The position numbers were made by a program, and so were the translations under genes. Under the pieces are notes generated by a model. The model saw only the letters and a list, made by a program, of their open reading frames with translations. It was not told the DNA's origin and ran no database searches. 64,000 bases of DNA from an uncultured Clostridia bacterium (lineage in GTDB: Bacteria > Bacillota > Clostridia > Christensenellales > CAG-138), in NCBI GenBank assembly GCA_934633695.1, contig CAKTYT010000001.1:138643-202642 (forward strand). The letters are read 5' to 3'. This document shows positions 2,053 through 51,200 of this stretch, piece by piece; the first letter of the stretch is position 1, and each line of letters starts with the position of its first letter.

Positions 2053-2064
2053 CGGAGGGGCTTT

Positions 2065-2550
2065 ATGGAAACAAATGACAAAAGCATTGGTCGTCCTTCC
2101 GAAGGGAAGAAAAGTTTTATTCAGCTTATAAAGTTTGCGATTGTCGGTGCAAGCAACACTTTGGTCGACTTGGTAATCACTTCAGTGCTGAATGCAATTT
2201 TTACCTGGTACTATGCTGCAAAGGTCATCGGCTATTGCTGCGGGATCGCAAATAGCTATTTGCTCAACAGCCGGTGGACGTTTAAGGAAGAAAGGCGAAA
2301 GGATACTCGGGAGATAGTGAGCTTTATTGCCGTGAATCTCGTCGTCCTGCTGATTTCCCTCGGTCTTATGAGTCTGTTTAAAAACAACCTCAAGCTTGAT
2401 ACCGTTTGGATGGACCTTGGGTTGCCATCGTGGCTCACAAAGATAATTAACGGTGAGCGTGCGTGTATGCTCCTTTCAACCGTTATCTGCCTTATTGTGA
2501 ACTTTGTCGGCAGTAAGCTGTTCGTTTTTAACGGTAAAAAGGAAGAATAA
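2065..2550 (+). CDS. GtrA family membrane protein
   Basis: 161 aa with 4 predicted TM helices. Motifs 'IKFAIVGASNTLVDL' and 'NSRWTF' are typical of GtrA-like proteins. An RBS GGAGG lies upstream. Confidence 0.8.
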   Translation: METNDKSIGRPSEGKKSFIQLIKFAIVGASNTLVDLVITSVLNAIFTWYYAAKVIGYCCGIANSYLLNSRWTFKEERRKDTREIVSFIAVNLVVLLISLGLMSLFKNNLKLDTVWMDLGLPSWLTKIINGERACMLLSTVICLIVNFVGSKLFVFNGKKEE

Positions 2551-2557
2551 AATGATT

Positions 2558-2602
2558 TTTGCCGGGGGGAGTCTTATGGGCTTCTTCCGGCAAACTTTTT
2601 TT
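2558..2602 (+). terminator. intrinsic terminator after gtrA-like gene
   Basis: Stem TTTGCCGG (2558-2565) pairs with CCGGCAAA (2587-2594), followed by a T-tract at 2596-2602. Confidence 0.6.
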
Positions 2603-2620
2603 GTCAACACGGAGGTTTAA

Positions 2621-4153: not shown

Positions 4154-5274
4154 ATTTGACAACAGCGGATAAATTATTTGTATGGCTCAGCCAGTGCTTT
4201 GAATGCAGCCCTAAACAGGCGATGGATCTTGTTGAAGCAAACGATGGAATTGAACAGTTGCACAAAAACGTATCTTTGGGCAAAATTGTCTCAAATAGGG
4301 AACTTTCAAAGGACAAATATGCTCTTCTTACAAACAACTCGCCAATTCCTCTGATTGAGGACTATATTGAGTTGTTAAACAGGAACGGAGTGTTTCCGCT
4401 GACGATAGCAAATGATTTGTATCCGAATTTACTGCGAGAAATCTATGATCCGCCTTTGGTTTTGTACTGTCGTGGAAATTACGAATCTCTGAATGAGAGC
4501 TTTCTCTTTTCAGTCATAGGCTCAAGGCATTGCACGGAATATGGAGAACAAATGACGAAATATTTTTCGTCTCAGCTCGCACAGGGCGGAATGACCGTCG
4601 TTTCAGGACTTGCTTACGGCTGTGATGCCTATGCTTCAAGGGCCGCTCTCGATTCAGCAAATTCAGCTCTGCCAACTGTCGCTGTACTTGGTCAAGGAGT
4701 ATGTGTGCGAAAAAATGATTCTACAGCAAAACTTATGGACGAAATTGTTCAACGGGGGCTTGTCATAAGCGAAATGCTCCCCTTTTCAAAAGCAACGAGG
4801 TATTCATATCCGATGCGAAACAGAATAATCAGTGGAATGAGCAACGGATTGCTCGTGGTCGAGGCGGGCAGCAAGAGCGGGACCATGATAACTGCCAATG
4901 CAGCCGTTGACCAAAACAGGATGGTCTTTGCCGTCCCGGGAAGGTTAACTGATATGATGAGTACGGGAACGAACAATCTCCTTCAAATGGGAATGGCTCA
5001 ACCGGTATACGGACCCGAAGACATTTTCGAATACTATCGCATGAACTTTCATGGAGTAAGTCTTAAAGAAAACATAGAAGATGCTGAGAAAATGCGACAG
5101 AAAATGACAACTGAGCAAAAGTTGGTGTACGATTTGCTCATTCATGGGGAAAAATCTTTTGACAGTTTATGCGAACTGTCCGGCTGGTCGGTAGAAAAAC
5201 TGAATTTATGCTTGACAGAAATGGAATTTTCGGGTTTAATAAAACAGTTGCCGGGGAGAGTCTATTCTGTATGA
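4150..5274 (+). CDS. dprA: DNA processing protein DprA (Smf)
   Basis: ATG at 4150 overlaps the comM stop (ATGA). The Rossmann-like DprA core shows 'VIGSRHCTEYG' and 'VVSGLAYGCDAYA...GTMITAN'. Confidence 0.9.
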   Translation: MNLTTADKLFVWLSQCFECSPKQAMDLVEANDGIEQLHKNVSLGKIVSNRELSKDKYALLTNNSPIPLIEDYIELLNRNGVFPLTIANDLYPNLLREIYDPPLVLYCRGNYESLNESFLFSVIGSRHCTEYGEQMTKYFSSQLAQGGMTVVSGLAYGCDAYASRAALDSANSALPTVAVLGQGVCVRKNDSTAKLMDEIVQRGLVISEMLPFSKATRYSYPMRNRIISGMSNGLLVVEAGSKSGTMITANAAVDQNRMVFAVPGRLTDMMSTGTNNLLQMGMAQPVYGPEDIFEYYRMNFHGVSLKENIEDAEKMRQKMTTEQKLVYDLLIHGEKSFDSLCELSGWSVEKLNLCLTEMEFSGLIKQLPGRVYSV

Positions 5275-5426: not shown

Positions 5427-7529
5427 ATGGCAGCAGATACTTTGGTTATTGTTGAGTCGCCATCAAAAGCGAAAACTATAGAGAAATATCTCGGTTCAAA
5501 ATATAAAGTCATTGCATCGAACGGCCACGTGAGAGATCTTCCCAAGAGTCAGCTCGGTGTCGATGTCGAAAATAATTACCAACCGAAATATATAACGCTG
5601 CGAGGCCGAGGTGAGGTCATTGAAAAGATACGCAAAGAGGCTAAGAGTGCCAAACGGGTTCTTCTTGCGACTGACCCTGACCGTGAAGGCGAGGCTATTT
5701 CTTGGCACCTTGCACATATGCTTAAAATGGATGAGAATCAGCCATGCAGAGTGGTGTTTAATGAAATAACAAAAAACGTTATAAAAAAATCAATAGAGCA
5801 CCCGAGGGTGATCGACAAAGAGCTGGTAGATTCTCAACAGGCAAGGCGTGTTCTTGACAGGCTTGTCGGTTACAAAATCAGTCCGTGGCTTTGGGCAAAG
5901 GTGCGTCGCGGTCTTTCGGCAGGCAGGGTTCAGTCGGTAACGACGAAAATCGTCTGCGACAGGGAACGTGAGATAAACGACTTTATTCCCAAAGAGTATT
6001 GGACCATTGCCGTTAAGCTCCTCCATGGAAAAAAACATTTTGAGGCGAAGTTCTATGGCTATGATGGTAAAAAAATGGAGCTTTCGTGTGAGGAAGAAGC
6101 AAAGAAGGTCGTTGCCCTATGCAGTAATGCAGGCTACACCGTTAAAGACATTAAAGTCGCAAAAAAAACACGTCACGCTCCTGCACCGTACACAACGAGC
6201 AGCATGCTTCAGGATGCATCCAACAGAGCGAGCTTGCCGTCAAAGAGGACGATGCTTTTTGCCCAGCAGCTCTACGAGGGTGTTGAATTGCCGGGAAAGG
6301 GCAATGTTGGCCTTATAACCTATATGCGTACGGATTCCGTACGTATTTCTGACGACGCTCAGAAGGCAGCCCGAGATTATTTAATCGAGAGATTTGGTGC
6401 TGAGTATGTTCCGGATAAGCCCAATGTTTATAAGGGTCGCAATGGTGCACAGGATGCACACGAGGCGATTCGTCCGACGAATGTTGAACTTACTCCGGAT
6501 ATGCTTAAGCCGTCTCTTGAATCGGGTCAGTATAAACTCTACAAGCTGATTTACGAACGCTTTCTTGCCAGTCAGATGAGTGATGCCGTGTTTGAATCGA
6601 CTTCCGTTGCTATTGACACGGACGGAAGCGAGATTTGCACGTTTAAAGCAAACGGTTCTGTTAAGTTGTTTGACGGCTTCACGGCGGTATATGCAATGGG
6701 TGCGGACGATGAAGATAAAAAAAGCGTTACACTGCCTTCAATGACAGTGGGCGATACACCGAAGTTTGAAAGCATAACTCCGAAGCAGAACTTCACGGAA
6801 CCGCCGGCAAGATACACTGAGGCGTCGCTTGTCAAGACACTTGAAGAACTCGGTATCGGTCGTCCGAGTACCTATTCTCCGACTATCTCTACTATTATCG
6901 ACAGGGGGTACGTCACTAAGGAAAAGAAACAGCTCGTTCCGACGGAGCTGGGATTCATTGTTACAAAACTAATGGAGGATAACTTTAAAGATATTGTCGA
7001 TATCAAATTTACCGCTGATATGGAATCAAAGCTTGACCGGGTTGAGGAAGGCAAGGTTCAGTGGCAGACGGTTATCGATGGATTTTACAGTCACTTCAAA
7101 GATGATCTTGAAAGGGCGTTCGAGGAAGCGGAGAAAATCAAGGTCGAAGACGAGGTTTCCGATGTGCCGTGCGATAAGTGCGGTGCAATGATGGTTTACA
7201 AGATGGGCAGATACGGGAAGTTTCTTGCCTGCCCGAATTATCCCGAATGCAAAAATGCAAAGCCTATAATTGAGCGAATAGGCGTCAAATGCCCTAAGTG
7301 CGGTGCAGACATCATCAAACGTAAGGGTAAAAAGAAGATTTTTTACGGTTGTGAGCGTTACCCCGATTGCGATTTTATTTCGTGGGATATGCCTGTAGAC
7401 ATGAAATGCCCCAAATGTGGCAAACAGCTCGTCAGAAAAATTGGAGCTAACGGTTCGTATGTCGTTTGCCCCGATAAGGCAGGCTGCGGCTACGTTATGA
7501 GGAAGCCTGAAAAAGAAACTGAAGAATAA
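5427..7529 (+). CDS. topA: DNA topoisomerase I
   Basis: 700 aa. TOPRIM start 'LVIVESPSKAKTIEKYLG', and C-terminal Zn-ribbon repeats (CDKCG...CPNYPEC, CPKCG...CERYPDC, CPKCG). Confidence 0.95.
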   Translation: MAADTLVIVESPSKAKTIEKYLGSKYKVIASNGHVRDLPKSQLGVDVENNYQPKYITLRGRGEVIEKIRKEAKSAKRVLLATDPDREGEAISWHLAHMLKMDENQPCRVVFNEITKNVIKKSIEHPRVIDKELVDSQQARRVLDRLVGYKISPWLWAKVRRGLSAGRVQSVTTKIVCDREREINDFIPKEYWTIAVKLLHGKKHFEAKFYGYDGKKMELSCEEEAKKVVALCSNAGYTVKDIKVAKKTRHAPAPYTTSSMLQDASNRASLPSKRTMLFAQQLYEGVELPGKGNVGLITYMRTDSVRISDDAQKAARDYLIERFGAEYVPDKPNVYKGRNGAQDAHEAIRPTNVELTPDMLKPSLESGQYKLYKLIYERFLASQMSDAVFESTSVAIDTDGSEICTFKANGSVKLFDGFTAVYAMGADDEDKKSVTLPSMTVGDTPKFESITPKQNFTEPPARYTEASLVKTLEELGIGRPSTYSPTISTIIDRGYVTKEKKQLVPTELGFIVTKLMEDNFKDIVDIKFTADMESKLDRVEEGKVQWQTVIDGFYSHFKDDLERAFEEAEKIKVEDEVSDVPCDKCGAMMVYKMGRYGKFLACPNYPECKNAKPIIERIGVKCPKCGADIIKRKGKKKIFYGCERYPDCDFISWDMPVDMKCPKCGKQLVRKIGANGSYVVCPDKAGCGYVMRKPEKETEE

Positions 7530-7543
7530 CGAAAGGAATCGGC

Positions 7544-8845
7544 ATGGTAAAAGTTAATGTTATCGGAGCAGGGCTGGCGGGCTGCGAGTGTGCAATGGTG
7601 CTTGCAGAGTCCGGAATTGATGTTAATTTGTATGACATGAAACCCTCAGAAAAGTCACCTGCACACAGGTCTGACAATTTCTGCGAGCTTGTTTGCTCAA
7701 ATTCGTTCCGTGCCGATAAGCTTGACAATGCCGTTGGGCTGCTGAAGCAGGAGTTGCGGCAGCTTGGCTCACTGATTATGAAGTGTGCCGATGAAAACAG
7801 AGTACCGGCAGGCGGTGCATTGGCAGTTGATAGGGAAAAGTTTTCAAAAGCGGTGACGGATGCGATAAGGTCAAACAAACACATCGAAATAATAAGTGAG
7901 CGTGTCGATTCAATTCCCGATGGACCGTGTGTCATTGCAACCGGTCCGCTTACAGATGGGGAGCTTCTGAGATCGATTGAGTCCATGCTCGGCGATAGTT
8001 TGCATTTTTTTGATGCGGCAGCACCGATAGTCACTGCGGAATCTCTCGACATGAGCAAAATTTTCTCAGCCTCAAGGTACAATAGGGGCAATGATTATCT
8101 TAATTGTCCAATGACGAGACTTGAATATTTTAAGTTTATTCGTGCATTGACGGAAGCAGAGACTGCTACGCTGCATGAATTTGAAAGACTTAACGTATTT
8201 GAAGGCTGCATGCCTGTTGAGGTTATGGCAAAACGCGGCGATTTAACACTTGCTTACGGTCCGATGAAACCGGTTGGACTTGAAGGCTGCAAAGCAGGCG
8301 ACGGCAAAAAGCCATTCGCCGTCGTCCAGCTTCGAAAAGAAAATGAAGAGGGAACATTGTTCAACATCGTCGGATTCCAGACTAACCTGAGGTTCGGTGA
8401 ACAGAAACGCGTATTCGGGTTAATCCCCGGTCTTGAAAATGCAGAGTATATGCGTTATGGTGTTATGCACAGAAATTCTTTCCTGCAATCGCCTAAACAT
8501 CTCACGCCGTTTTATTCGCTGAGGACAAGAAAGGATCTTTTTTTTGCAGGGCAGATCACGGGTGTTGAAGGATATGTTGAGAGTGCGGCGAGCGGTTACG
8601 TTGCCGGACTTAACATGAGCAGATTTTTAAGAGGTCAGGAACCGTTGGATTTCACGAGAAAGACTGCGATAGGTTCGCTTGCACACTATGTGAGTGGGTA
8701 CAACGGTGGTGCTTTCCAACCGATGAACGTTTGTTTCGGTATAATGGAAATGTTGCCTGAGGCACCAAAGGAAAAGTTTAAGCGTTTCCTTGCCATTTCC
8801 CAAAGAGCATTGGATACGCTTGAGCAAATAAAAAAAGAAATTTAA
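7544..8845 (+). CDS. trmFO: methylenetetrahydrofolate--tRNA-(uracil-5-)-methyltransferase TrmFO
   Basis: 433 aa. FAD-binding 'VIGAGLAGCECA' and 'CSNSFR'. The position after topA matches the Bacillus arrangement. Confidence 0.95.
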   Translation: MVKVNVIGAGLAGCECAMVLAESGIDVNLYDMKPSEKSPAHRSDNFCELVCSNSFRADKLDNAVGLLKQELRQLGSLIMKCADENRVPAGGALAVDREKFSKAVTDAIRSNKHIEIISERVDSIPDGPCVIATGPLTDGELLRSIESMLGDSLHFFDAAAPIVTAESLDMSKIFSASRYNRGNDYLNCPMTRLEYFKFIRALTEAETATLHEFERLNVFEGCMPVEVMAKRGDLTLAYGPMKPVGLEGCKAGDGKKPFAVVQLRKENEEGTLFNIVGFQTNLRFGEQKRVFGLIPGLENAEYMRYGVMHRNSFLQSPKHLTPFYSLRTRKDLFFAGQITGVEGYVESAASGYVAGLNMSRFLRGQEPLDFTRKTAIGSLAHYVSGYNGGAFQPMNVCFGIMEMLPEAPKEKFKRFLAISQRALDTLEQIKKEI

Positions 8846-8876
8846 TGATTGAGAAATAGAAAAAGGAGTTACTCGT

Positions 8877-9410
8877 ATGGAAATCAGAGGAACTACTATA
8901 TTGGGTATCAGAAAGAACGGCGAATGTGCAATTGCAGGCGACGGTCAGGTGACACTCGGAGAAACTACGATAATGAAACATACTGCAAAGAAAGTTCGCA
9001 GGATATTTGATGATAAAGTTGTTATAGGGTTTGCAGGTGCTGTTGCAGATGCATTCACGCTCAGCGACAGGTTTGAGGCAAAGCTCACAAAGCATGGAGG
9101 GAGCCTTCGCCGTGCGGCAATTGATCTCGCACAGGATTGGAGAAACGATAAAGTCATGCGTAAGCTAGAGGCACTGCTCATTTGTGCAGATAAAGATGAC
9201 TTACTGATTGTTTCTGGTACGGGAGAAGTTATTGTACCTGACGATGGCATTGCTGCGATCGGCAGCGGCGGCATGTATGCTCTTGCGGCGGCACGGGCAT
9301 TGAATGCGAACACTGAGCTTCCGGCCAAGGAGATTGCCGAGAAGAGTTTGCTCATAGCATCGGAAATTTGTGTTTATACCAACTCACATATTACCGTTGA
9401 AGAGGTCTGA
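8877..9410 (+). CDS. hslV: ATP-dependent protease subunit HslV
   Basis: 177 aa. The N-terminus '[11 protein letters not shown]' carries the Thr nucleophile context. The gene is followed by hslU. Confidence 0.95.
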
Positions 9411-9458
9411 GCGGACTGCAAATACATTGAATGAAGTTTGTGAAGGAATGGAATAATA

Positions 9459-10868
9459 ATGCTTACACCAAAACAAATTGTTGATTCTTTAGATAAATAC
9501 ATTGTAGGACAGGGCGATGCAAAGCGTACCGTTGCGATTGCCTTGCGTAATCGCTATAGACGCAGCAGACTTCCTGAAGAAATGCGTGAGGAGATTATAC
9601 CTAAAAACATAATTATGGTTGGTCCTACCGGCGTCGGAAAGACAGAAATTGCGAGGCGGCTTGCAAAGCTCGTGGATGCACCGTTCGTAAAGGTTGAAGC
9701 AACCAAGTTTACGGAAGTAGGTTATGTCGGCAGGGACGTTGATTCAATGGTTCGTGACCTCGTGGAAGTATCAATTCGTCTTGTAAAGCAACGTTGGCAG
9801 GATAAGGTTCGCGTTGCGGCAGATGCAGCGGCAGAGAAGAAGATAATCGACATTCTGTGCGGAGAAAAAACGCAAACGAAGAATGATAACAATCCGTTTG
9901 CCGATTGGGGCGAAGGACTTAAAAAGCTTTTTGGTTCTGCAAATGGTGCGGAGGAAACAAAGGAAGTTGCCGTTGCCGATGCAGAGCAGGCAAAGACTTA
10001 CAGCGACAAGCGTGCAAGGATTGCCGAGGAATTGAGAGCGGGTCAGCATGAGAATGATATTATTGAAATCAATGTGACAGAGTCAGGTCAGGGTAGCGAT
10101 TCTCTCATTGCAATGGGTATTGACGTCAATCTCAACGAGGTTTTCGGCGGTGCTTTGCCAAAAAAGACCAAGTGCCGCAAAGTCACCGTTGCCGAAGCGA
10201 GAAGGATCCTATCTTCTGAGGAAGCGGAGAAGCTTATCGATATGGATGAGGTTACCCGTGAGGCAATTGATAAAGCTGAGCAGGATGGCATTATCTTTAT
10301 CGATGAAATTGACAAAATTGCTGCGGGCAACGGCGGAAATGGTCCCGACGTTTCACGGGAAGGAGTTCAGAGAGATATTCTTCCAATTGTCGAAGGCAGC
10401 ACAGTGAGTACGAAATATGGACCCGTCCGCACAAATTATATGCTATTTATTGCGGCAGGAGCTTTCCATGTTTCAAGGGTGAGCGACCTTATCCCTGAGC
10501 TTCAGGGTCGTTTCCCCGTTCGGGTGGACCTGGATGCACTCACGATGGAGGATTACGAGCGTATTTTGATGAAACCGCAGAATGCAATTACTAAACAGTA
10601 TGCGGCTTTGCTTGAGACGGATAATATCAGAATCCATTTTGAGCCGGAAGCAATTAAGGCTATTGCCGCGGCGGCCTACGCTGCCAATGAAAACAGTGAA
10701 AACATCGGTGCAAGACGATTGCATACGATTGTTGAAAACCTGCTGGAAGACATTTCTTTCAATGCGACGGGTGAACATCCAATGATTGATGTTGCCATAG
10801 ACGAAAAGTATGTACGAGAACATATTTCGCATTGCGGTGAGGATGATCTGGGGAGGTATATCATCTAA
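9459..10868 (+). CDS. hslU: ATP-dependent protease ATPase subunit HslU
   Basis: 469 aa. '[17 protein letters not shown]', Walker A '[15 protein letters not shown]', and '[10 protein letters not shown]'. Confidence 0.95.
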
Positions 10869-10919
10869 CACCATGAAATTTCTCTGGAGGTAATATAACC
10901 AAAAGGAGGAAGCAAGCTG

Positions 10920-11942
10920 ATGCGTACTGAAAAAAAACACCACCTGCTTGTAATCACAATTGTGTTTACACTCGTTGTGTGCATTGCAATGCAATGTTTC
11001 ACTATGGGCTGTTCAAGCACACAGACTGGAAGGAAGGACGGAAACGTTACACCGGATACCACGAGCGAATTAAATTCTGCCGGGGTAGAAGTGCATAATT
11101 CCCAAACCGTTGAAACGCAAATGACCATAACAATGGAGCCGACACCCGCTCCGACAGCAACCTCGGAGATTAAGTTAAGCCCCATGCCAACAGAGACGGT
11201 TCCCGTTGACACACCGATACCAATACCGGTGAGTTCGATGCCGTATGCCCCTGCAACGTATCCGCCGATGACGGAAATGGATTATGTTCCAGGTTATACG
11301 ACGGAACAGTATGTTAATGTTCGTGCAGAGCCATCAACTGACGCAGATATTTTGCGTATTGTTAAGCTTGGCACAGCCGTTTACATCACAGGAAGGAACG
11401 ATGATTGGTTCAAGGTTGAAATTGATGGAGTTGAAGGGTATATCGCAAGACCCTATGTTATGTCAGGGCAGTATGAAACTCCGACTCCGACCCCTGCACC
11501 TACACCGAGGCCCACACCGAAGCCTACACCTTCTTCAATGTACACCGTTCAACCGGGGCAGTTCAGTGAATACGATATTAAACTTGTTGCCGCTCTGATC
11601 CATGCAGAGGGTCCGGGCAGTACGAAGGTCGGCTATCGTGCAATTGCAAGCATAATCTTAAATAGAGTTATGAATGGTTCAGGGTGGTTTCCGAACGATG
11701 TTTCGGGTGTGCTTTTTCAAAAAGGTCAATTTGGCTACAGCCGAGCATACCTCGAGTCTTTAAATCCAAACAGTGTTGCCCTTGCCGCTGCAAGATATGT
11801 TTTTCAGACGCACGGATCGACTTTGCCTAAAAAAGTGTTGTTTTACAGAGCCTCTTATCTTGGCAGGAACTGGACGGATTACACGAAATACTACGCAACA
11901 ATTGAGGGCAACTGTTACTTCTATGGAATAAAATACTATTGA
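10920..11942 (+). CDS. lipoprotein with SH3 domain and SleB-type cell-wall hydrolase domain
   Basis: Signal peptide with a lipobox 'FTMGC'. Pro/Thr-rich linkers, an SH3-like stretch 'VNVRAEPSTDADIL...GYI', and a C-terminal 'LVAALIHAEGPG...ASIILNRV' (Hydrolase_2-like). Confidence 0.7.
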   Translation: MRTEKKHHLLVITIVFTLVVCIAMQCFTMGCSSTQTGRKDGNVTPDTTSELNSAGVEVHNSQTVETQMTITMEPTPAPTATSEIKLSPMPTETVPVDTPIPIPVSSMPYAPATYPPMTEMDYVPGYTTEQYVNVRAEPSTDADILRIVKLGTAVYITGRNDDWFKVEIDGVEGYIARPYVMSGQYETPTPTPAPTPRPTPKPTPSSMYTVQPGQFSEYDIKLVAALIHAEGPGSTKVGYRAIASIILNRVMNGSGWFPNDVSGVLFQKGQFGYSRAYLESLNPNSVALAAARYVFQTHGSTLPKKVLFYRASYLGRNWTDYTKYYATIEGNCYFYGIKYY

Positions 11943-33400: not shown

Positions 33401-33434
33401 TTTTCAAACTTTTATGAAAGAGGAGGTCCTCTGA

Positions 33435-33734
33435 GTGCAGAAAAAAATACCGATGAGGATGTGTGTAGGCTGTCGGGAAATGAAGCCGAAGAGAGAGCTC
33501 GTGCGTGTCGTTTGCAGCAGAGCAGATGACGAATCAATGCCGCCGATAATCAGCGTAGACTTTACGGGCAAGGTTGCCGGCAGGGGTGCGTATGTGTGCC
33601 CCAGCAAAAAATGCCTTGAACGTGCCGTAAAGAGCAGAGCTCTTGACAGAGCATTTTCAACGAAGATCAGTGATGAAGTGCTTGATGTGCTGAAGTCTGC
33701 CGTTGACGAGGCAGAGAAATGCACGGAGGAATGA
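33435..33734 (+). CDS. ylxR: YlxR/RnpM family (DUF448) RNA-binding protein
   Basis: 'PMRMCVGCREMKPKRELVRVV' and 'GRGAYVC'. Confidence 0.85.
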   Translation: MQKKIPMRMCVGCREMKPKRELVRVVCSRADDESMPPIISVDFTGKVAGRGAYVCPSKKCLERAVKSRALDRAFSTKISDEVLDVLKSAVDEAEKCTEE

Positions 33735-33740
33735 AAATAA

Positions 33741-34031
33741 ATGGATGATTCTTCTGCAAAGAAAAATTGTCTCGGCTTTGCAATGAAGGCAGGAAAGGTT
33801 GTTTCGGGCGACTTTGCAGTCGAAAAAGCGGTCAAATCGTTTAAAGCAAAATGCATTGTCATCGACACAGCCGCTTCCGACAATACTAAGAAGCGTTGGC
33901 AAGATGCTTGCAAGCCTAGGGAAATACCGATTGTTGAGTTGACGGAAATGGGCAGAGCAATCGGCAGGGATGCAAAAATGGTCGCAGCCGTTTTGGATGC
34001 AGGTTTTGCATCGAGACTTATCAAAAAGTGA
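33741..34031 (+). CDS. ylxQ: L7Ae/YlxQ family RNA-binding protein
   Basis: 96 aa lying between ylxR and infB. Motif '[12 protein letters not shown]'. Confidence 0.8.
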
Positions 34032-41250: not shown

Positions 41251-41279
41251 TTGAACCTCTTGACAAAACGTGCTATAAT
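41251..41279 (+). promoter_or_regulatory. sigmaA promoter of PHP-helicase-topoisomerase B operon
   Basis: TTGAAC (41251-41256), a 17-nt spacer, then TGcTATAAT (-10 at 41274-41279). Confidence 0.6.
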
Positions 41280-41306: not shown

Positions 41307-42122
41307 ATGTTTCTGTTTGATTATCACGTACATACAAGTTGTTCATTTGATTCTATGTGTCTGCCTGCCGAACAGGTTTTTTCGGCGTCAAAAAGGGGCA
41401 TAAGCGAACTTTGCTTCACCGACCACATCGATTTTGACACGCCTGAGGGTATGGGACATAAATCTGCGGACCTTTCGGAACTGCGAAGTATGGTCGGCGA
41501 ACTTTATCCGACATACAATGGCATGAAATTGAAAATCGGTGCTGAAATCAGCTTGGGAAACGCGAAAGTTGCAGATGACGTAAATGAGTACGTCGCCCGT
41601 TTTAAACCCGATTTTATTATTGCCTCGATACATCGCATTGACGGTTTGCCCGTTTACAAGCCTGAGTTTTATTCGAATAGAACAAAACATGATGCATATT
41701 TCGCATACCTTAATGCAATTTACAATGGAATATGCAGCAACGATGAATTTGACGTCATAGGTCATTATGATTTTATAACGAAATATGCACCTTATGCAGA
41801 CAGGTCAATGCACCTCGGAGAAGACGAACGCATCGACGAAACGATAAAAAAGATTTTCAGGCTGTTGATAAGCAGGGGACAGGGTATCGAAATAAACTCT
41901 TCTGCGTGGTGGAATGAGGCTTGTACGGGTGACGACATAATTAAATTATACACAACACTCGGAGGAGAATTTGTGACGATTGGTTCGGATGCTCATGTTT
42001 CTGAAAACGTAGGCAATAGGCTCGATGAGGCATTGGAACAGGCGTATAGGTGCGGAGTTAAATATGTTGCAACGTATTCGGAACGGAAACCGGAGTTCCA
42101 CAAAGTTGAGAGACTTATGTGA
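41307..42122 (+). CDS. HisJ-family PHP-domain histidinol-phosphatase-like protein
   Basis: 271 aa. 'DYHVHTSCSFDS', 'FTDHIDF' and 'GSDAH' are PHP metal-ligand motifs. A strong RBS GGAGGAG is present. Confidence 0.8.
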   Translation: MFLFDYHVHTSCSFDSMCLPAEQVFSASKRGISELCFTDHIDFDTPEGMGHKSADLSELRSMVGELYPTYNGMKLKIGAEISLGNAKVADDVNEYVARFKPDFIIASIHRIDGLPVYKPEFYSNRTKHDAYFAYLNAIYNGICSNDEFDVIGHYDFITKYAPYADRSMHLGEDERIDETIKKIFRLLISRGQGIEINSSAWWNEACTGDDIIKLYTTLGGEFVTIGSDAHVSENVGNRLDEALEQAYRCGVKYVATYSERKPEFHKVERLM

Positions 42123-45100
42123 GGAGATTTATTTTGGAAGACTTTTCTGAACAAAAGAAATATTCTGATTCAGCAGATTCTGAAGTGCTTACTGTTCAGG
42201 ATGCTCTTGACAGATGTATTGACTATATAGGCAAGGTGGATTTTGATGTTATCTCATCGATAATCAAACTGCCAAAAAGGAAGGTCATGCTCTCTTTGAA
42301 AGGGTCCGTTTATTTTGACCCGGAGAAAAGTGAATTTGTCACGTCAGAAGAGTACTTGTCAGGAAAAGTATACAAAAAACTCTGCATCGTTAAGAAAGCT
42401 GCCGAGCAGGGAAATATTCCGGATGGGGTCGATTATAATGACAATATCGATGCATTAACGCTCATTATGCCCAAACGCATTGAGGCAAAGCAGATAAAGG
42501 CTAGTATAGGCAGTCCATGGATACCGCCCTATGTATATCGTGATTTCATTGTCGCATTGATTGGCATAAAATCAAATTCGGGGAAAATAGGTCTGCGTGT
42601 CGAATACATAAAAAAAGCAAACCACTACATTATTTACGGCAAAAAGAATTTTATGGGATTTACAAGGGCGAGAATGACTTACGGTACAGAAAGAATGAAT
42701 GCCTTTGAAATCATTGAACGACTGCTAAATTCGAGGGAAATTGCCGTCTATGATTCGGCTCTCAGTGAAAGTGGGCAGCCTACAAGGAAAATTAATCGTG
42801 CCGAGACTCTTGCGGCTCAGGAAAAAGCAAAACAGATAAGCGAGTTATTCCATTTCTGGCTTTTTAAAGATGAGCCGCGACGGACTGAACTGTTGAATTT
42901 TTATAACGAAAATTTCTGTGCTTTAGTTCCGCGGCGATTTGATGGAAGCCGAATGCTGCTGCCAGGGAAAAATACTGATATAAGTCTGCAAAAACACCAG
43001 CTCGATGCAATAAAACGTATTGTTCATTCAAAAAACATTCTGCTTGCACATCAGGTAGGTGCAGGTAAGACTTATGTTATGGCTGCTGCGGCCATGGAAC
43101 TGCGAAGATTGAAAATCTCAAGGAGAAACTTATTCGTTGTTCCGAATAATATTCTTGAGCAATGGTACAACGAATTTCAGCATCTCTATCCGGATGCGGC
43201 TTTGATGCTCGTTCAGCCCAAAAACTTTACGCCGTCAACAAGAAACAAAACTTTAAGAGAAATCATGCAACATGATTACGATGCGATAATCATGGGTTAT
43301 GGCAGCTTCTCATTGATTCCTCTATCAAATGAGGAGCGGGAGAAAGAGCTTAATGCCATTTTGAACGATATTTCTAACGTTATGACGGATGTTGTCTACA
43401 ATGATGCCTATGTTGTGCTGAATCGATTCGCTTCAAGGGTCGAAAACAGACTCCACAAGATTTGGGAGAGTGAGGAAAAGATGCAGCCGGATACAATTTT
43501 CTTCGACCAGCTCGGCATTGACACACTCTTTATAGATGAGGCACATAACTTCAAAAATATAAGCATTGAAACAAAGCATGGAGCTTTGCCCGGACTGAAT
43601 ACAAAGGGATCAAAGCGGTGCGACGATCTCATGGCAAAGGTTAGGTTTATCCAAAGAACTCATGGTGGGAGAGGTGCAGTATTTGCAACCGGTACTCCGA
43701 TAACAAACTCAGTCTCTGACCTCTATACACTACAACGTTACCTTGACTATGAGCACCTTGAGGAGCTTAATCTGTTAGAATTCGACAATTGGGTTAAAAT
43801 GTTCTCTGAAGTTACGGAAGAGTTTGAAGTTGAGGCAAATGGAATTGGATACAGGCTGCGTTCAAGATTGAGTAAGTATTATAACCTACCCGAACTTTCC
43901 TTGTTGATTTCGAACATCGCTGATTTATATTATACATCGAACGATGACAAAAAACTGCCACAGCATGTTGAAGTCGTGAATTGCACGGTTTCGGCCAGCC
44001 CGGCTCTAAGAGCGTATATTGAAACTCTTGCCGACCGTGCCGAACTTGTCAAATCCGGTATCGTGCCGAGAACAGTTGACAATATGCTGAAAATTACAAC
44101 TGATGGAAGAAAAGCCGCACTAGATATGCGTCTTGTGGATCCCGAGCTGCCCGATGATGAAGATTCAAAGCTGAATCGATGTGTACGCAATGTGTTTGAA
44201 ATTTGGAACGGGAACAGCAAACTTACCCAGTTGATCTTCCTTGACCAGAGTACACCAAAGGAAGGGTTCAATCTCTATGATGACATAAAAAATAAGCTCG
44301 TCGTACTCGGTGTTCCGCAGGAGGAAATTGCCTTCGTACACGATGCAGTAAATGATAATATGCGAGTTGCACTCTTCAACAAAGTCCGTAAGGGAAAGAT
44401 TCGCATTCTCATTGGTTCGACCTTCAAGCTGGGTATCGGTGCGAACGTGCAAAACAACCTCTATGCCGTTCACCATCTCGACATTCCGTGGCGTCCGAGT
44501 GATGTTATACAGCGTGAAGGCCGAATGCTGAGACAGGGAAATAAAAACGATGATGTCAGGATTTATCGTTATATAACTCAAGGCAGCTTTGATGCGTATT
44601 CGTGGCAGCTGCTGGAGAATAAGCAGAGGTTCATTTCGCAGATTGTAAATGGAAATTATCCGGCAAGAAGCGGTGACGAGGTTGATGAAGTCGTTCTAAC
44701 GTATAGTGAAGTAAAATCACTTGCTGTCGGCAATCCGCTCATAAAGCGAAGGATAGAGGTAGAAACACGGCTTCAGCGTTCCCTTATGCTGAAAGCCAAG
44801 CATGATAAAAACAGAGTTGCTGCCGGGGAGGAACTTCTCAAATTTCCTGCGAAGCGAATGGAACTTGAGCGGCTCAAAGAAATCTTCGCTGAAGATGCAC
44901 AGCTTGTTCTCGATAGTACACCACAGTCATTCCGGATGCAGCTTATGGATGAGATATTTACAAAGAGACGCGATGCAGGCGAAAGATTAACCGAACTTTT
45001 GGCTGAGTACGCATTCATCCGTGAAGACAAACTGATTGGAAAATATCGGGGACTTGATGTATACCTTGCCAACGATGCGGCGGGGGCGAGAAGAATTTTC

Positions 45101-45346
45101 ATGCTCAAAGGCAGAGGAAACTATCAGTCGGAACTCAGTACGAGTGCAATAGGCATAATCTCGAGAATGGATAATGTTATTAATGGAATAAAGCAGCGTT
45201 ATGAAAATTCGGTTGAAAAACTCGAGGGGCTTGCACTAGATGAGCAGGAACTTATCGCAAGAAGAGATACACCATCGCCGCTTGAGGGAGAAATTGCAGA
45301 ACTTCGTGCCGAACTCAGGAAGGTAAACCGAGAACTCGGCATGTGA
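42119..45346 (+). CDS. SNF2/DEAH-type SF2 helicase (helicase module of methylase-helicase 'polyvalent' proteins, without methylase)
   Basis: Motif I 'AHQVGAGKTYV', II 'FIDEAHNFKN', III 'ATGTPITNS' and VI 'QREGRMLRQGN'. An N-terminal 'EEYLSGKVYKKL' region and a coiled-coil C-terminus are also present. The GTG start overlaps the upstream stop. Confidence 0.8.
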   Translation: MRRFILEDFSEQKKYSDSADSEVLTVQDALDRCIDYIGKVDFDVISSIIKLPKRKVMLSLKGSVYFDPEKSEFVTSEEYLSGKVYKKLCIVKKAAEQGNIPDGVDYNDNIDALTLIMPKRIEAKQIKASIGSPWIPPYVYRDFIVALIGIKSNSGKIGLRVEYIKKANHYIIYGKKNFMGFTRARMTYGTERMNAFEIIERLLNSREIAVYDSALSESGQPTRKINRAETLAAQEKAKQISELFHFWLFKDEPRRTELLNFYNENFCALVPRRFDGSRMLLPGKNTDISLQKHQLDAIKRIVHSKNILLAHQVGAGKTYVMAAAAMELRRLKISRRNLFVVPNNILEQWYNEFQHLYPDAALMLVQPKNFTPSTRNKTLREIMQHDYDAIIMGYGSFSLIPLSNEEREKELNAILNDISNVMTDVVYNDAYVVLNRFASRVENRLHKIWESEEKMQPDTIFFDQLGIDTLFIDEAHNFKNISIETKHGALPGLNTKGSKRCDDLMAKVRFIQRTHGGRGAVFATGTPITNSVSDLYTLQRYLDYEHLEELNLLEFDNWVKMFSEVTEEFEVEANGIGYRLRSRLSKYYNLPELSLLISNIADLYYTSNDDKKLPQHVEVVNCTVSASPALRAYIETLADRAELVKSGIVPRTVDNMLKITTDGRKAALDMRLVDPELPDDEDSKLNRCVRNVFEIWNGNSKLTQLIFLDQSTPKEGFNLYDDIKNKLVVLGVPQEEIAFVHDAVNDNMRVALFNKVRKGKIRILIGSTFKLGIGANVQNNLYAVHHLDIPWRPSDVIQREGRMLRQGNKNDDVRIYRYITQGSFDAYSWQLLENKQRFISQIVNGNYPARSGDEVDEVVLTYSEVKSLAVGNPLIKRRIEVETRLQRSLMLKAKHDKNRVAAGEELLKFPAKRMELERLKEIFAEDAQLVLDSTPQSFRMQLMDEIFTKRRDAGERLTELLAEYAFIREDKLIGKYRGLDVYLANDAAGARRIFMLKGRGNYQSELSTSAIGIISRMDNVINGIKQRYENSVEKLEGLALDEQELIARRDTPSPLEGEIAELRAELRKVNRELGM

Positions 45347-45368: not shown

Positions 45369-47342
45369 ATGGAAAAACACAACTATTCTGTTGACGATAT
45401 TAGGGTTATGGAAGGGTTGGAGGCCGTTCGCGTCCGACCGGGAATGTATATCGGCAGCACAGGCTCAAGAGGTCTTCATCATATGCTGTGGGAGATCGTT
45501 GATAACGCTGTCGATGAGGCGGCAAATGGCTTTGCAACGGAAGTTGCCGTTACACTTAATAAAGATAATTCGGTCATTGTCGAAGACAATGGAAGGGGTA
45601 TACCGGTCGGTATTCACGAAAAGCTTCATGTTTCAGGCGTTGAGGTAGTTTATACCCAGCTCCATGCAGGCGGAAAATTCGATAATGAGTCATACGGCTT
45701 TTCCGGTGGACTTCATGGCGTCGGTGCATCGGTAGTTAATGCATTGTCCGAATACGTCGAAGTCGAGGTTGCAACAGCGGGCAGGCTCTATAAAATCAGA
45801 TTTCACAGCTTTGAGGATGAGCAGGGCAACATGCACTCAGGTATACCGGAAGCTCCGCTCGCCGAAGTCGGAAGGACGAGACGGCAGGGGACGAGAGTAA
45901 CATTTTTACCCGACGCAAGAGTTTTCGAGACAGTCGATATGAATCACGAAATTGTCTTGAAACGGCTGCGTGAACTTGCGTACCTCAATAAGGGTATAAT
46001 GTTCAGGTTTACAGATAATCGAAGGAAGGATGAGTCAAAGTATAGTGAGTTCAAATATGACGGCGGTATAATTGATTTCGTATCGTACCTTAACGCCGAT
46101 AAAACTGTTCTTTACAAGGAGCCAATTTTCTTCAAAGGAATAAAGAAAAGCGAAAAAAATAATATTGTTGTTGAAATTGCAATGCAGCACAATGATGGTT
46201 ATGCTGAAAGTGTGTTCTCTTATGTAAACAATATTCCAACAACGGAGGGTGGAACGCACGAAACTGGTTTCAAGTCTGCATTGACAAAGGTCATGAACGA
46301 TTACTGCCGCAAAATAGGTGTATTAAAGGACAAAGATAATTCGCTGTCAGGTGAGGACTTTCGAGAGGGACTTACCGCTGTAATTTCATTAAAAATGAGT
46401 TCGATTCAGTTCGAAGGTCAGACGAAAACGAAGCTTGGCAATACTGAAGCCAGAACGGCGGTTGAAAGTGTTGTCATTGATGAATTGACGCCCATTCTTG
46501 AGGATCTTAAAAACGCTGAACTTGCGGCAATGATGGCAGATAAGGCGATGAAGGCTGCTAAGGCACGCGAGGCGGCAAGAAAAGCCAAGAGTATGGCAAG
46601 GGAGAAATCAAAGCTCGAAAATGCTCCTCTCGTCGGTAAACTTTCGAGTTGTACCGGCAGGAATCCGGAGTTAAATGAGCTCTTCATTGTTGAAGGTGAT
46701 TCGGCAGGCGGCAGTGCAAAACAGGGGCGTGACAGAAGGTTTCAGGCAATTCTTCCGCTTAGAGGCAAGCCTCTCAATGTAGAAAAACGCAGGATTGAGC
46801 AAGTTCTTGAAAATGAAGAATGCAGGTCGATAATTACTGCTCTGGGAACGGGGATAGGCGAGGATTTTGAACTCAAAAACCTCAAGTACCATAAGGTTGT
46901 GATTCTTTCTGATGCAGACCAAGACGGTGCACATATAAGAGCACTGCTGTTGACGTTCTTTTATCGTTATACAAGAGAGCTTATAACAAATGGAAACATT
47001 TATATGGGCATGCCTCCGCTCTATAAAGTTCAAAAGGGAGCCGACGTTCGCTATGCTTACGATGATGAGGAGCTTGCGAGACTGACAAAGGGATTAAAGG
47101 GCTATACTTTACAGCGTTACAAGGGACTCGGCGAGATGAATCCGGAGCAGTTGTGGGAAACTACGCTCAACCCTGAAAACCGTTCGCTTGTTCAGGTCAC
47201 AATTGACGATGCGGCGTACGTTGAGCACCTCGTTACGCTCCTAATGGGTGATAAGGTCGCCCCAAGAAAAGAATATATAACTGAATTTGCGAATTTCAAT
47301 AAAGTTGATTCGTTTGAGGATAAAGTCAAAATTGATTCATAA
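45369..47342 (+). CDS. type IIA DNA topoisomerase subunit B (GyrB/ParE family; paralog not resolved)
   Basis: GHKL motifs 'WEIVDNAVDEA' and 'GLHGVGASVVNA'. TOPRIM motifs 'EGDSAGGSAKQGRDRRFQAILPLRGK' and 'DADQDGAHI'. Also 'QRYKGLGEMNPEQLWETT'. Confidence 0.9.
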   Translation: MEKHNYSVDDIRVMEGLEAVRVRPGMYIGSTGSRGLHHMLWEIVDNAVDEAANGFATEVAVTLNKDNSVIVEDNGRGIPVGIHEKLHVSGVEVVYTQLHAGGKFDNESYGFSGGLHGVGASVVNALSEYVEVEVATAGRLYKIRFHSFEDEQGNMHSGIPEAPLAEVGRTRRQGTRVTFLPDARVFETVDMNHEIVLKRLRELAYLNKGIMFRFTDNRRKDESKYSEFKYDGGIIDFVSYLNADKTVLYKEPIFFKGIKKSEKNNIVVEIAMQHNDGYAESVFSYVNNIPTTEGGTHETGFKSALTKVMNDYCRKIGVLKDKDNSLSGEDFREGLTAVISLKMSSIQFEGQTKTKLGNTEARTAVESVVIDELTPILEDLKNAELAAMMADKAMKAAKAREAARKAKSMAREKSKLENAPLVGKLSSCTGRNPELNELFIVEGDSAGGSAKQGRDRRFQAILPLRGKPLNVEKRRIEQVLENEECRSIITALGTGIGEDFELKNLKYHKVVILSDADQDGAHIRALLLTFFYRYTRELITNGNIYMGMPPLYKVQKGADVRYAYDDEELARLTKGLKGYTLQRYKGLGEMNPEQLWETTLNPENRSLVQVTIDDAAYVEHLVTLLMGDKVAPRKEYITEFANFNKVDSFEDKVKIDS

Positions 47343-47344
47343 GG

Positions 47345-47382
47345 AAAGCTGCCATATCGATAGTTGATGTGGCAGCTTTTTT
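47345..47382 (+). terminator. intrinsic terminator after topoisomerase B gene
   Basis: AAAGCTGCCA (47345-47354) pairs with TGGCAGCTTT (47370-47379), running into TTTTTT. Confidence 0.85.
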
Positions 47383-49003: not shown

Positions 49004-49627
49004 TTAATCGACTTGTTCCGGTGTTTCGATAGTTGAGCAGCTGACTTCGTATGCTGTTCGTATTTCAGTAGACCCATCTTCAAGCAGTTTTTTGTATTCC
49101 CTGCTTTGAAGTCTTCCTGTCAGATTAAGCTTTTCACCGACATTAAGGCAGCTGAGGAAACGTGCGTTCCGTCCCCATGCAATGCAAGGGAGATAATCGG
49201 ACTTTCCATAACGTCGGTTGACTGCAAGCAAAACATCGGCAATTTCACGAGAGAAAGGAGTTGTTCTGTAAACTACCGGTTTACAGATAAAACCCGAAAG
49301 CTCGCATTCATTGCAGTCTCCACCGTACTGCTCATCGGAAACCGGTAAAAACTCACGGGCGAAAACAGTTATAATCAGCTTGCTTCCCGCTTCAGTAGTC
49401 TTGTTGTATGAGCGAATTTGTCCAGCAATGCTGAAAATTGAATCTTCCGAAATTGTTATTCCGTTGAGAAGCCTTTCACCGACGGTCACGGGAACGATAT
49501 CCATTGTACCGCTGAGGCGTTCGACAGCGATTTTCAATTTATAAAAGGCTTCGCCGTAGAGAGTATGACTGTATTCAGCATCGGACACGGCACGACCGCA
49601 TATGTAAATAGCGTTGTTTGAATCCAT
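49004..49627 (-). CDS. tandem OB-fold single-stranded-DNA-binding-like protein
   Basis: Two SSB-like halves. The first is 'NAIYICGRAV...DIVPVTV...IAGQIRSY'. The second is 'CELSGFICKPV...SDYLPCIAWGRNARF...LTGRLQSREY'. There is no acidic C-terminal tip. Confidence 0.5.
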   Translation of the reverse strand: MDSNNAIYICGRAVSDAEYSHTLYGEAFYKLKIAVERLSGTMDIVPVTVGERLLNGITISEDSIFSIAGQIRSYNKTTEAGSKLIITVFAREFLPVSDEQYGGDCNECELSGFICKPVVYRTTPFSREIADVLLAVNRRYGKSDYLPCIAWGRNARFLSCLNVGEKLNLTGRLQSREYKKLLEDGSTEIRTAYEVSCSTIETPEQVD

Positions 49628-49749: not shown

Positions 49750-50433
49750 TCAGATATCGGATTTCAGTGTCTCAGGTTTCGCACAGGAAACCTCGAGATT
49801 TCCGTTGTAAATGCGGAGCTCATCAATGAATTCCTTTTCCTTAATACCTCTCTTGAGAGTGATGGAATAGTGAAGATTGAAAAGACTGCCCATATTCGTA
49901 GTCTTGATTTTGAGAAGCTCAACCCTTGAGGTGTATTTTTTAAACACTGCTTCAAAGACATCCTCATAGTTTAGACCTTCAGGAATAACTATCTTGAGAT
50001 CGCGAACGAGCGGACCTGCGGAGCCGAAGTTCATACTGGTGAGCAGGAACATGACAAGACAAATTATAATGGTAAGTATAACAGAAATGCCAATGAACCC
50101 TACGCCGTTAGCGAGGCCGATCGTCATAGCCAGGAAAACAAATGTAATGTCTCTTCCCGATGCGGGAACGGAACGGAAACGAACAAGACTAAAGGCACCT
50201 GCTATTGCGATTGCAGTACCAAGTTCCCCATTGACAAGAACGATGACGGTCTGGACAATCACAGGGAGTATTGCAAGAGTAAATGTAAAGCTCTTCGTGT
50301 AATTATTCTTGTATGTATTGCACAGTGCAATGATCACGCCTAGAACGAGCGAAACGGCGATGCAAATAAGATACCCTGAAAGGGTCATTGTATCGGTCGC
50401 ATTAAAAATGCTTGAAAAAACATCAAACTGCAT
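49750..50433 (-). CDS. DUF4956 domain membrane protein
   Basis: 227 aa. N-terminal TM helices, the motif 'FSLVRFRSVPASGRDITFVFLAMTIGLANG', and a soluble C-terminal domain. It starts 14 nt after the VTC gene stop. Confidence 0.7.
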   Translation of the reverse strand: MQFDVFSSIFNATDTMTLSGYLICIAVSLVLGVIIALCNTYKNNYTKSFTFTLAILPVIVQTVIVLVNGELGTAIAIAGAFSLVRFRSVPASGRDITFVFLAMTIGLANGVGFIGISVILTIIICLVMFLLTSMNFGSAGPLVRDLKIVIPEGLNYEDVFEAVFKKYTSRVELLKIKTTNMGSLFNLHYSITLKRGIKEKEFIDELRIYNGNLEVSCAKPETLKSDI

Positions 50434-50447
50434 AATTCCTCCAAAAA

Positions 50448-51200
50448 TTAAAAATCAATATTTTTCACTGCATCTGGAACGGCAACAAAGCTGTTCCCTT
50501 CATTAAGATGCTTTCTGAGTTCAATGCCATAGGCAGTGCCGTACTTTGAGAACGAAGAGGGATAAATTTTATTCTCGTCGAGCAGCCTTGAAAGCCATAG
50601 CGGCATGGCAAATGCTGTTTTAACTTCAAGGACATACTTGTCCCTGTCAAGGAGCGGCAAGCCGTAACTGCCATTGCGCAAGTCAAAATCGCAAGTTCTG
50701 TACCTTAAATTTCTGTCGATCGTCAATCTGAGGTTGTCATCTTCACGGTCAAACAGGGCAATTCGTTCGCAAAACATGCAAAAAGACGGAGCCAGACCTT
50801 TGTAAAACTTAAAGGCGTATTTTACTTCCTTGCCGATTTGGTTATCAGGGAGAGACTTGTCCCCATTCATGATATCGAATGCCTCTTTATACGTCATATC
50901 GATTCGGCGTTTATAAACAATGCCCTTATATTTCTTCTTCAGTTCGTAAAAAGCTTCACTATCGTCTCCAGGAGTGTTATAACATCGCAAACGAAGCTTT
51001 TCCTTGTACACGGGTTTGGAAACCGAGTGTCTCACAAGACGGCTGTCGGGAGTATCGAAGTAGACACTGCAAATTGTGCTCTCTCCGAACTCATCGTTAC
51101 GCATATGCTTCATCAGTATGTCGATAATATTGACATACTGCTCGTGAGTTATAACGTATTTTTTTTCGACGCGAGTGAAGATGTTCTTGCTGCGAGCCAT
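50448..51200 (-). CDS. VTC-domain (polyphosphate polymerase-like, triphosphate-tunnel) protein
   Basis: 'RVEKKYVITHEQY...SVYFDTPDSRL...KEKLRLRCY...ELKKKYKGIVYKRR' matches the VTC/CYTH-like tunnel pattern. Confidence 0.75.
   Translation of the reverse strand: MARSKNIFTRVEKKYVITHEQYVNIIDILMKHMRNDEFGESTICSVYFDTPDSRLVRHSVSKPVYKEKLRLRCYNTPGDDSEAFYELKKKYKGIVYKRRIDMTYKEAFDIMNGDKSLPDNQIGKEVKYAFKFYKGLAPSFCMFCERIALFDREDDNLRLTIDRNLRYRTCDFDLRNGSYGLPLLDRDKYVLEVKTAFAMPLWLSRLLDENKIYPSSFSKYGTAYGIELRKHLNEGNSFVAVPDAVKNIDF

Follow-up and report, generated by a model that had tools for sequence, protein, structure and literature searches.

A stretch of 64,000 nucleotides from an uncultured Clostridia bacterium (contig CAKTYT010000001.1 of assembly GCA_934633695.1, positions 138,643 to 202,642 of the forward strand; hereafter the window) carries a gene for a large SNF2-type helicase, which lies between genes for a PHP-domain phosphoesterase and a type IIA topoisomerase B subunit. 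The question raised by this locus is what a helicase resembling those of giant phage and conjugative-element proteins is doing in such a place. By sequence comparison, it is a stand-alone helicase of the DarB/polyvalent (methylase-helicase) type, with homology to the helicase module of such proteins from end to end. The original prediction had offered three options, namely a domesticated helicase, a decayed mobile-element remnant or part of a nucleic-acid module. The first of these fits best, and we regard the protein with moderate confidence as a domesticated DarB-type SNF2 translocase of double-stranded DNA (dsDNA), which would act solo in a presumed cellular role.

The open reading frame (ORF) 42119..45346 (+) is open for 1075 codons counted from GTG 42119, as had been predicted, and residue numbers are given from this GTG throughout. 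All strings that had been quoted from it were found in the translation, these being AHQVGAGKTYV (residues 310-320), FIDEAHNFKN (471-480), ATGTPITNS (523-531), QREGRMLRQGN (798-808), IGSPWIPPYVY, EEYLSGKVYKKL and AVGNPLIKRRIEVE. The protein has two RecA-like lobes in an SNF2-type fold, and Walker A, DExH and motifs III and VI are all present. The N-terminal module (residues 21-285, 42179..42973, +) comprises a winged-helix-like start and an alpha/beta domain (Pfam WH_1 and DUF8437). It is followed by lobe 1 of the SNF2-type ATPase (residues 288-531, 42980..43711, +; Pfam SNF2-rel_dom and ResIII), with its Walker A motif GAGKT at 43058-43072, DEAH at 43535-43546 and motif III TGTP, and by lobe 2 (residues 700-850, 44216..44668, +; Pfam Helicase_C), with the motif VI sequence QREGRMLR at 44510-44533. 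The ATPase motifs of both lobes fall in invariant columns in an alignment of 40 sequences. The C-terminal region (residues 862-1075, 44702..45343, +) is modelled by AlphaFold2 (AF2) as two long helical hairpins around a small beta domain. On the window protein, Pfam recognizes the generic motor alone (SNF2-rel_dom, ResIII, Helicase_C), while the newer entries found on its homologues (WH_1, DUF8437, Helicase_dom) have names that carry no functional information.

The likeness of the flanks to DarB-like proteins, which the original prediction had put forward, was borne out. The profile PHROG 10089, annotated as 'DarB-like antirestriction', matched the helicase with E=2.9e-243, residues 21-1073 corresponding to profile positions 2105-3208 of 4647, so that both flanks, including the C-terminal region, lie within the match. 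An exhaustive HMMER search with the helicase gave 7239 clusters at E<1e-30; the top clusters are mostly 2000-3500 amino acids long, and their C-terminal halves align to residues ~21-1075 of the helicase with 37-41% identity. Phage and plasmid records reached an identity of at most 39%, and a close relative sought in phage, plasmid and viral-contig collections was not found (identity at most 39-42%). No methyltransferase domain was detected by Pfam or NCBIfam, in agreement with the prediction, and just ~15-20 residues stand before the helicase module in the window protein. Databases list these proteins under the name 'DEAD/DEAH box helicase family protein' or under that of 'N12 class adenine-specific DNA methylase', which is wrong. 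The latter name was given by JGI to the 1063-aa stand-alone homologue P0091 despite its lack of a methyltransferase domain, and was probably carried over from fused phage and plasmid proteins.

The natural comparison is the dyad of an LPD36-adenine methyltransferase with a SWI2/SNF2 helicase in polyvalent proteins, whose archetype is P1 DarB (Iyer et al. 2017, PMC5512222). Homology between the window helicase and the helicase module of the dyad extends throughout, with the same SNF2 motifs, the same N-terminal winged-helix/DUF8437 flank and the same C-terminal helical flank. In contrast to the dyad, the window protein has neither LPD36 nor an EcoKI/TaqI-like N6-adenine methyltransferase, is 1070 amino acids long rather than 2000-4900, lies in a chromosomal core context rather than in a phage or conjugative element, and belongs to a separate, well-supported clade. 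Methylation-coupled anti-restriction cannot be the mechanism of the window helicase.

The predicted structure is in line with this assignment. The full-length AlphaFold model (predicted local distance difference test, pLDDT, 78; predicted template modelling score, pTM, 0.75) was matched by Foldseek to the motors of Snf2, ISWI, Chd1, INO80, Mot1 and CSB, with E of ~1e-15 for the first four, and ZorD and RapA ranked 36 and 45, respectively. When the N-terminal 267 residues were modelled alone (AF2 pLDDT 88.5), no PDB entry was matched by Foldseek with E<0.4, the best (E 0.44) being a faint winged-helix resemblance, and a known DNA-binding fold or a methyltransferase target recognition domain was rejected on this ground. 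In BFVD, however, the same module could be superposed on parts of the methylase/helicase giants of phages (E down to 9e-18, TMq 0.6-0.74). In terms of modelled structure, the N-terminal module is common solely to these phage giants. A profile of the C-terminal 226 residues returned only coiled-coil noise from the PDB, and this region is without known relatives outside its family.

A neighbour-joining (NJ) tree of 241 cropped helicase modules, built from top-scoring hits only and midpoint-rooted without an outgroup, separated these proteins by size, with the stand-alone proteins all falling together. In the clade with the window protein, 112/114 members have at most 1320 amino acids, whereas in the other clade all but one of the 127 members exceed 1320. 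In a 74-taxon subsample, the split between stand-alone and polyvalent proteins was recovered in 60/60 bootstraps, as was the monophyly of the 29-member subclade of the window protein, which sits on a long stem branch (0.28). Among the best 80 matches in IMG/VR (2.9 M viral contigs), 76 lie inside ORFs of ~1700-4900 amino acids; one contig (L117) carries the form with MoxR and von Willebrand factor A (VWA) partners described below, and none is of the window's type. Taken with the tree, this marks the stand-alone proteins as a cellular lineage separate from the mobile-element lineage.

We examined whether the gene could be a decaying remnant of a polyvalent methylase-helicase brought in by a phage or conjugative element, as had originally been considered. 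The functionally annotated close homologues are mobile-element proteins only, and the GC content of the gene (0.429 vs 0.453+-0.017 for the window) is 1.4 standard deviations under the window mean, both of which would suit such an origin. However, the ORF is full-length with invariant motifs, and the GC content at third codon positions (GC3) and the synonymous-codon likelihood of the gene are within the window's range. The proposed check of windowed GC and codon usage thus returned a native composition, and recent horizontal transfer was rejected. Against the ortholog of 93% identity, the nonsynonymous divergence (dN) of the helicase is 0.043, being 0.052 in the N-terminal part, 0.032 in the motor and 0.061 in the C-terminal part, as compared with 0.047 for ribF, 0.054 for the DHH protein, 0.030 for topoisomerase B, 0.120 for plsY and 0.125 for PHP in the same pair. 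The synonymous divergence (dS) is saturated even for this 93% pair, which leaves dN and an upper bound in place of a dN/dS value. The surrounding synteny is kept in about ten species-level genomes, the clade is separate from that of the polyvalent proteins, and no DNA methyltransferase, integrase, relaxase or phage genes were found in the 64-kb window. The idea of a decayed remnant therefore does not hold, and we consider it almost certainly wrong. The helicase gene is instead intact, under strong purifying selection, vertically inherited and fixed in a core-gene region of a Christensenellaceae-like lineage. Its flanks are core genes, as the claim of a housekeeping context required, with comM, topA, trmFO, hslU, thrS, polC, infB, rbfA, a DHH phosphoesterase gene, truB, ribF and plsY upstream of the three-gene block, and genes for an RlmI-like RNA methyltransferase, a single-stranded-DNA-binding (SSB)-like protein, DUF4956 and VTC proteins downstream.

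The gene supplies a SNF2 motor to a housekeeping operon that follows closely on the nusA-infB transcription/translation cluster, and this position could also suit a role like that of RapA/HepA, a SNF2 ATPase coupled to transcription by which RNA polymerase is recycled or displaced. RapA is a housekeeping SNF2 ATPase of bacteria, shares the motor fold and is among the fold matches noted above, but that likeness is one of the generic SNF2 core only. The helicase has no RapA-specific domain, its flanks are different and of DarB type, and a family-level match to RapA/HepA or to any other named housekeeping helicase is absent from Pfam, NCBIfam and PDB sequence searches. This identity, which the original prediction had set against its own claim of an unusual type, was rejected, and a RapA-like role is very unlikely.

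A known defence system was likewise rejected, as PADLOC-DB 2.0 gave weak motor-lobe matches only for the helicase (best DrmD, 54.8 bits, and BrxH, 47.5 bits, over ~100 residues only) and nothing for the PHP protein. Across NCBIfam and PADLOC, the partial matches to DISARM DrmD, BREX BrxH, Zorya ZorD and Dpd DpdE amount to 20-63 bits vs cut-offs of 500-1500 bits, and none of the partner genes of known defence systems is present in the window.

To place the locus among its relatives, a scan with one genome per species was used, which gave 20 helicase loci at 62-72% identity and 60 at ~40%. The ~40% relatives ('type C') belong to the same stand-alone clade, align over residues ~25-1075 with the same domain order, have 1150-1190 amino acids and occur in Oscillospiraceae, Lachnospiraceae, Acutalibacteraceae and some Christensenellaceae. 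In 55/57 informative loci, the type C helicase gene is immediately followed by a gene for a MoxR-like AAA+ ATPase (371 amino acids) and then by a zincin-VWA gene, the junction between helicase and MoxR usually being a 4-nt overlap. Walker A of the MoxR protein is intact in 45/45, and so is HExxH in the zincin-VWA protein (45/45), a DUF2201_N/DUF2201 protein of ~430 amino acids. These three-gene operons are found in loci L021-L080 (e.g. L023:7701-13499; L081:10001-15967), and most of their junctions are overlaps of 4 nt. The type C helicases also carry an N-terminal tail of ~100 amino acids, rich in lysine and glutamate and bounded by the motifs QLSLFDxL and LPLDWEN (P0103-P0120, P0122, P0125 and others), which is missing from the window's subclade and from polyvalent proteins and may serve in the docking of MoxR or VWA. 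A profile of this tail found nothing in giant (>1320 amino acids) polyvalent proteins, its two matches both being in proteins of stand-alone size, and an origin of the tail as a methyltransferase leftover was rejected.

None of these type C features, that is, the charged tail, the translational coupling to MoxR/VWA and the variable, defence-rich flanks, is present in the window, and no homologues of MoxR, VWA or SPFH proteins were found in its 64 kb (by tblastn for MoxR and VWA). Among 139 flank proteins of type C loci we counted WYL (8), GmrSD (3), retron reverse transcriptase (2), AriA-like (3) and PDC-S08 (4) proteins, and the flanks also hold McrBC, AbiEii-like and Fic proteins and resolvases; the setting is defence-island-like. 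PADLOC assigned the type C helicase, MoxR and VWA to no known system (MoxR being a weak mad8 match), and the SPFH protein likewise had no match. In MoxR-vWA ternary conflict systems, the third component is a VMAP, iSTAND, FtsH or beta-propeller protein (Kaur et al. 2020, PMC7159879). The type C operons resemble these in their MoxR ATPase, their vWA fused to a peptidase-like domain and their third component, but a DarB-type helicase is not a described third component, and the window has neither a MoxR nor a vWA gene. No description of a DarB-type helicase with MoxR/VWA was found in Kaur 2020, Iyer 2017 or the BREX survey of 2026, and the literature searched contained no mention of DUF2201 and no description of a cellular stand-alone DarB-type clade. 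The combination of helicase, MoxR and zincin-VWA is the main cellular form of the family and a candidate new three-gene system.

Two loci of the wider stand-alone group lie near type IIA topoisomerase genes. In L061, a 90-aa phage-type integrase fragment (7176-7451, -) lies directly upstream of the MoxR/VWA-linked helicase operon, at a distance of 3.9 kb from a topoisomerase B gene 79% identical to that of the window; this suggests that such an operon can sit on an integrated island. In L058, from a Faecousia metagenome-assembled genome (MAG), a cluster at 6324-11395 (-) encodes a ParE-like subunit that is divergent, with 30% identity to that of the window, together with a ParC-like subunit and a calcineurin-like phosphoesterase, 2-7 kb from a stand-alone helicase without MoxR. 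By our own estimate, ~1.5 such cases are expected by chance in 60 loci, and two were observed. Positional orthology of the window with L061 was rejected, because the integrase fragment gives that locus the look of an island insertion and the frequency of L058 and L061 together matches chance.

The type C branch bears directly on whether the window helicase could still be an anti-mobile-element factor, acting in defence or surveillance as a solo version of the helicase-MoxR-VWA system that came to lie in a core operon by chance. Such a role would agree with the near-constant pairing of its ~40% sister branch with MoxR and zincin-VWA genes, with the wealth of WYL, GmrSD, retron, AriA, PDC-S08, McrBC and AbiEii-like genes around that branch, with the integrase fragment beside one of its loci and with the weak core similarity to DrmD, BrxH, ZorD and DpdE. 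However, the window's subclade is stable in position in about ten genomes, with housekeeping or metabolic flanks and no PADLOC system; neither the N-terminal tail nor the MoxR/VWA neighbours have been kept in the window helicase; and its subclade's long stem points to a functional shift. A retained defence function is possible but doubtful.

We next consider the immediate neighbours of the helicase gene, for which the start codon matters. The GTG at 42119 had been proposed as the start, overlapping the stop of the upstream gene in ATGTGA, and translational coupling had been proposed on that basis. The start is probably TTG 42134 rather than this GTG. The in-frame TTG stands 7 nt past a perfect GAGGAG (42121-42126, +), a Shine-Dalgarno sequence that overlaps the PHP stop TGA (42120-42122), and it corresponds to the position at which P0001, the ortholog 93% identical to the helicase, begins. 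It is also the start chosen by gene callers on same-species contigs, and the resulting 1070-aa product is an identical record in NCBI, ENA and Logan. The helicase gene would thus be 42134..45346 (+), within a frame open from 42119, and, because of this start, the gap to the PHP gene is 11 nt, tight without overlap; the detail of translational coupling depended on a start codon that is probably wrong.

The upstream gene (41307..42122, +) encodes a PHP-domain phosphoesterase of 271 amino acids, and its assignment to the HisJ type was confirmed by Pfam PHP (7e-19) and TIGR01856 (120.6 bits, cut-off 90.2). The set of metal ligands (HxH, E, H, H, DxH) is complete. The score of the equivalog PRK05588 (157.9) lies under its cut-off of 321, so that the assignment is to the family and not to a substrate; homologues bear the name 'histidinol-phosphatase HisJ family protein'. 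Downstream, 22 nt after the helicase stop at 45346, ATG 45369 opens a gene for a GyrB/ParE-type type IIA topoisomerase B subunit of 657 amino acids (45369..47342, +; PRK05644 891.7 bits, cut-off 740), exactly as predicted. Its scores of 869 for gyrB (cut-off 882.4) and 821.8 for parE_Gpos (cut-off 899.95) mean that neither GyrB nor ParE can be called from the window, in which no topoisomerase A-subunit gene was found.

The promoter and terminator that had been proposed to bracket these genes were both recovered. The promoter (41251..41279, +), in the intergenic gap between plsY and PHP, is of sigma-70 type, TTGAAC-17 nt-TATAAT, with a TG ahead of the extended -10 and a 10/12 match to the consensus, and it is the sole + strand extended -10 match within an intergenic gap. 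The intrinsic terminator (47344..47382, +), a 17-bp hairpin followed by UUUUUU (-24.5 kcal/mol, z = -7.8), was detected by folding and had been missed by a consensus scan. The PHP, helicase and topoisomerase B genes are most probably co-transcribed from this promoter to this terminator.

Shared transcription would raise the question of whether the three genes form one nucleic-acid module, in which, for example, the translocase would make torsional stress or expose DNA ends for processing by the topoisomerase and the PHP nuclease or phosphatase. Besides the single promoter, the single terminator and the gaps of 11 nt and 22 nt, the block itself is conserved, with the complete trio in about ten Christensenellaceae-like or 'Clostridia' MAGs (L001-L004, L006, L007, L009, L020 and L084/L085, the 93% relative) and a partial one in two more, L005 and L018. 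Upstream of six of these loci is the infB-to-plsY block; three loci (L006, L007 and L009) keep the trio with a differing upstream flank, and several have a differing downstream flank. However, in the ~62% subclade topoisomerase B is adjacent in 0/10 loci and PHP is missing from 8/10, being kept upstream in L010 and L017 (2/10), while nine loci have a gene for an SPFH/Band_7_1 protein of 457-476 amino acids directly after the helicase, among metabolic flanks (L008, L010-L014, L016, L017 and L019; e.g. L014:11260-12681 and L091:11314-12687). Among the 60 loci of the ~40% branch, neither a PHP gene of this type nor topoisomerase B is directly beside the helicase, and the topoisomerase proximity in L058 and L061 is at about chance level. 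The PHP protein changes at three times the rate of the helicase (dN 0.125 vs 0.043; identity 40-47% vs 64-72%) and is a regular member of the HisJ family, whose homologues of 41% identity in other Clostridia adjoin leuS, yqeC and prs without a helicase. Because these homologues sit in unrelated contexts, the PHP link is lineage-specific. The trio as a whole is a lineage-specific arrangement, with the topoisomerase link confined to one subclade. The conservation of the trio, which had been proposed as a check, therefore holds for about ten related genomes and fails in the ~62% and ~40% relatives, and the suggested module finds weak support in that block, against partners that are absent in sister loci and PHP homologues that are unlinked elsewhere. 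We consider a functional module unlikely.

The domesticated solo translocase can be given a possible mechanism by analogy. A Snf2-like two-lobe motor would track along duplex DNA, positioned by the N-terminal winged-helix/DUF8437 module, while the C-terminal helical region would probably serve in oligomerisation or partner binding. The motor could then displace or remodel DNA-bound proteins, or alter the local twist of the DNA. The enzyme would act alone on the cell's own DNA transactions, as a domesticated derivative of a conflict-system helicase, with the PHP and topoisomerase genes as operon neighbours and not obligate partners. The long stem branch, the lack of the partners and the tail, which were lost, and a position that is stable all suggest that the protein moved out of a conflict-system setting into a lasting cellular role, and an activity in dsDNA translocation or remodelling would follow from the analogy with related motors.

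Several points weigh against this reading. The cellular role is one that we infer, and the defence-island-like flanks of the type C branch lend a modest probability to a defence role. The absence of MoxR and VWA was established for these 64 kb only. The persistence of the trio in L006, L007 and L009, despite a change of both outer flanks, speaks mildly for a functional operon rather than mere inherited synteny. The tree is a midpoint-rooted NJ tree of top-scoring hits, without an outgroup, and almost all relatives are MAGs.

A bolder scenario, which we regard as speculative and rather improbable, concerns the stand-alone clade as a whole. It would mark a conflict system of gut Clostridia that is centred on MoxR and vWA and has gone undescribed, and whose DNA-engaging component is a DarB-type SNF2 translocase gated by a MoxR AAA+ ATPase and a zincin-VWA protein. 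The window gene would then descend from a form that shed its regulators and tail and was recruited into a core operon beside a GyrB/ParE subunit as a constitutive motor for chromosome maintenance or DNA surveillance. If this were true, it would represent a defence-to-housekeeping transition of a phage-type helicase.

DarB-type helicase modules have hitherto been discussed only within the giant proteins with which phages and conjugative elements invade, and in these a fused methyltransferase is believed to be their working partner. The family of the window helicase has the same module without any methylase, as a conserved and strongly selected cellular gene family, which in one lineage precedes a type IIA topoisomerase subunit gene within a core operon and in most others is coupled to a MoxR/VWA chaperone pair. 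It is abundant in gut Clostridia metagenomes, individual 90% clusters having from hundreds to thousands of members. The stand-alone form could offer a simpler handle on what a DarB-type motor does on DNA, and it is a possible example of exchange, in either direction, between mobile-element weaponry and host genes.

Some features of the remaining window were also observed. Rfam and tRNA scans of the window found a tRNA-Asn at 61537 and no other structured RNA. An ORF of 206 codons (33404-34024, -) runs antisense over the start of infB with the lowest codon-choice score in the window (-1.28 vs a mean of -1.09) and is almost certainly not a gene. The SSB-like gene downstream of the trio (49004-49627, -) encodes a 207-aa protein with the SSB domain confined to residues 105-198 and ~100 N-terminal residues without an assignment; in L001, L003 and L085 it keeps its synteny with the genes for topoisomerase B and the RlmI-like methyltransferase, and it adjoins topoisomerase B in L061. 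The DUF4956 and VTC-domain genes (49750-51200, -), which lie side by side, are kept in L001, L003 and L085 and are possibly polyphosphate-related.

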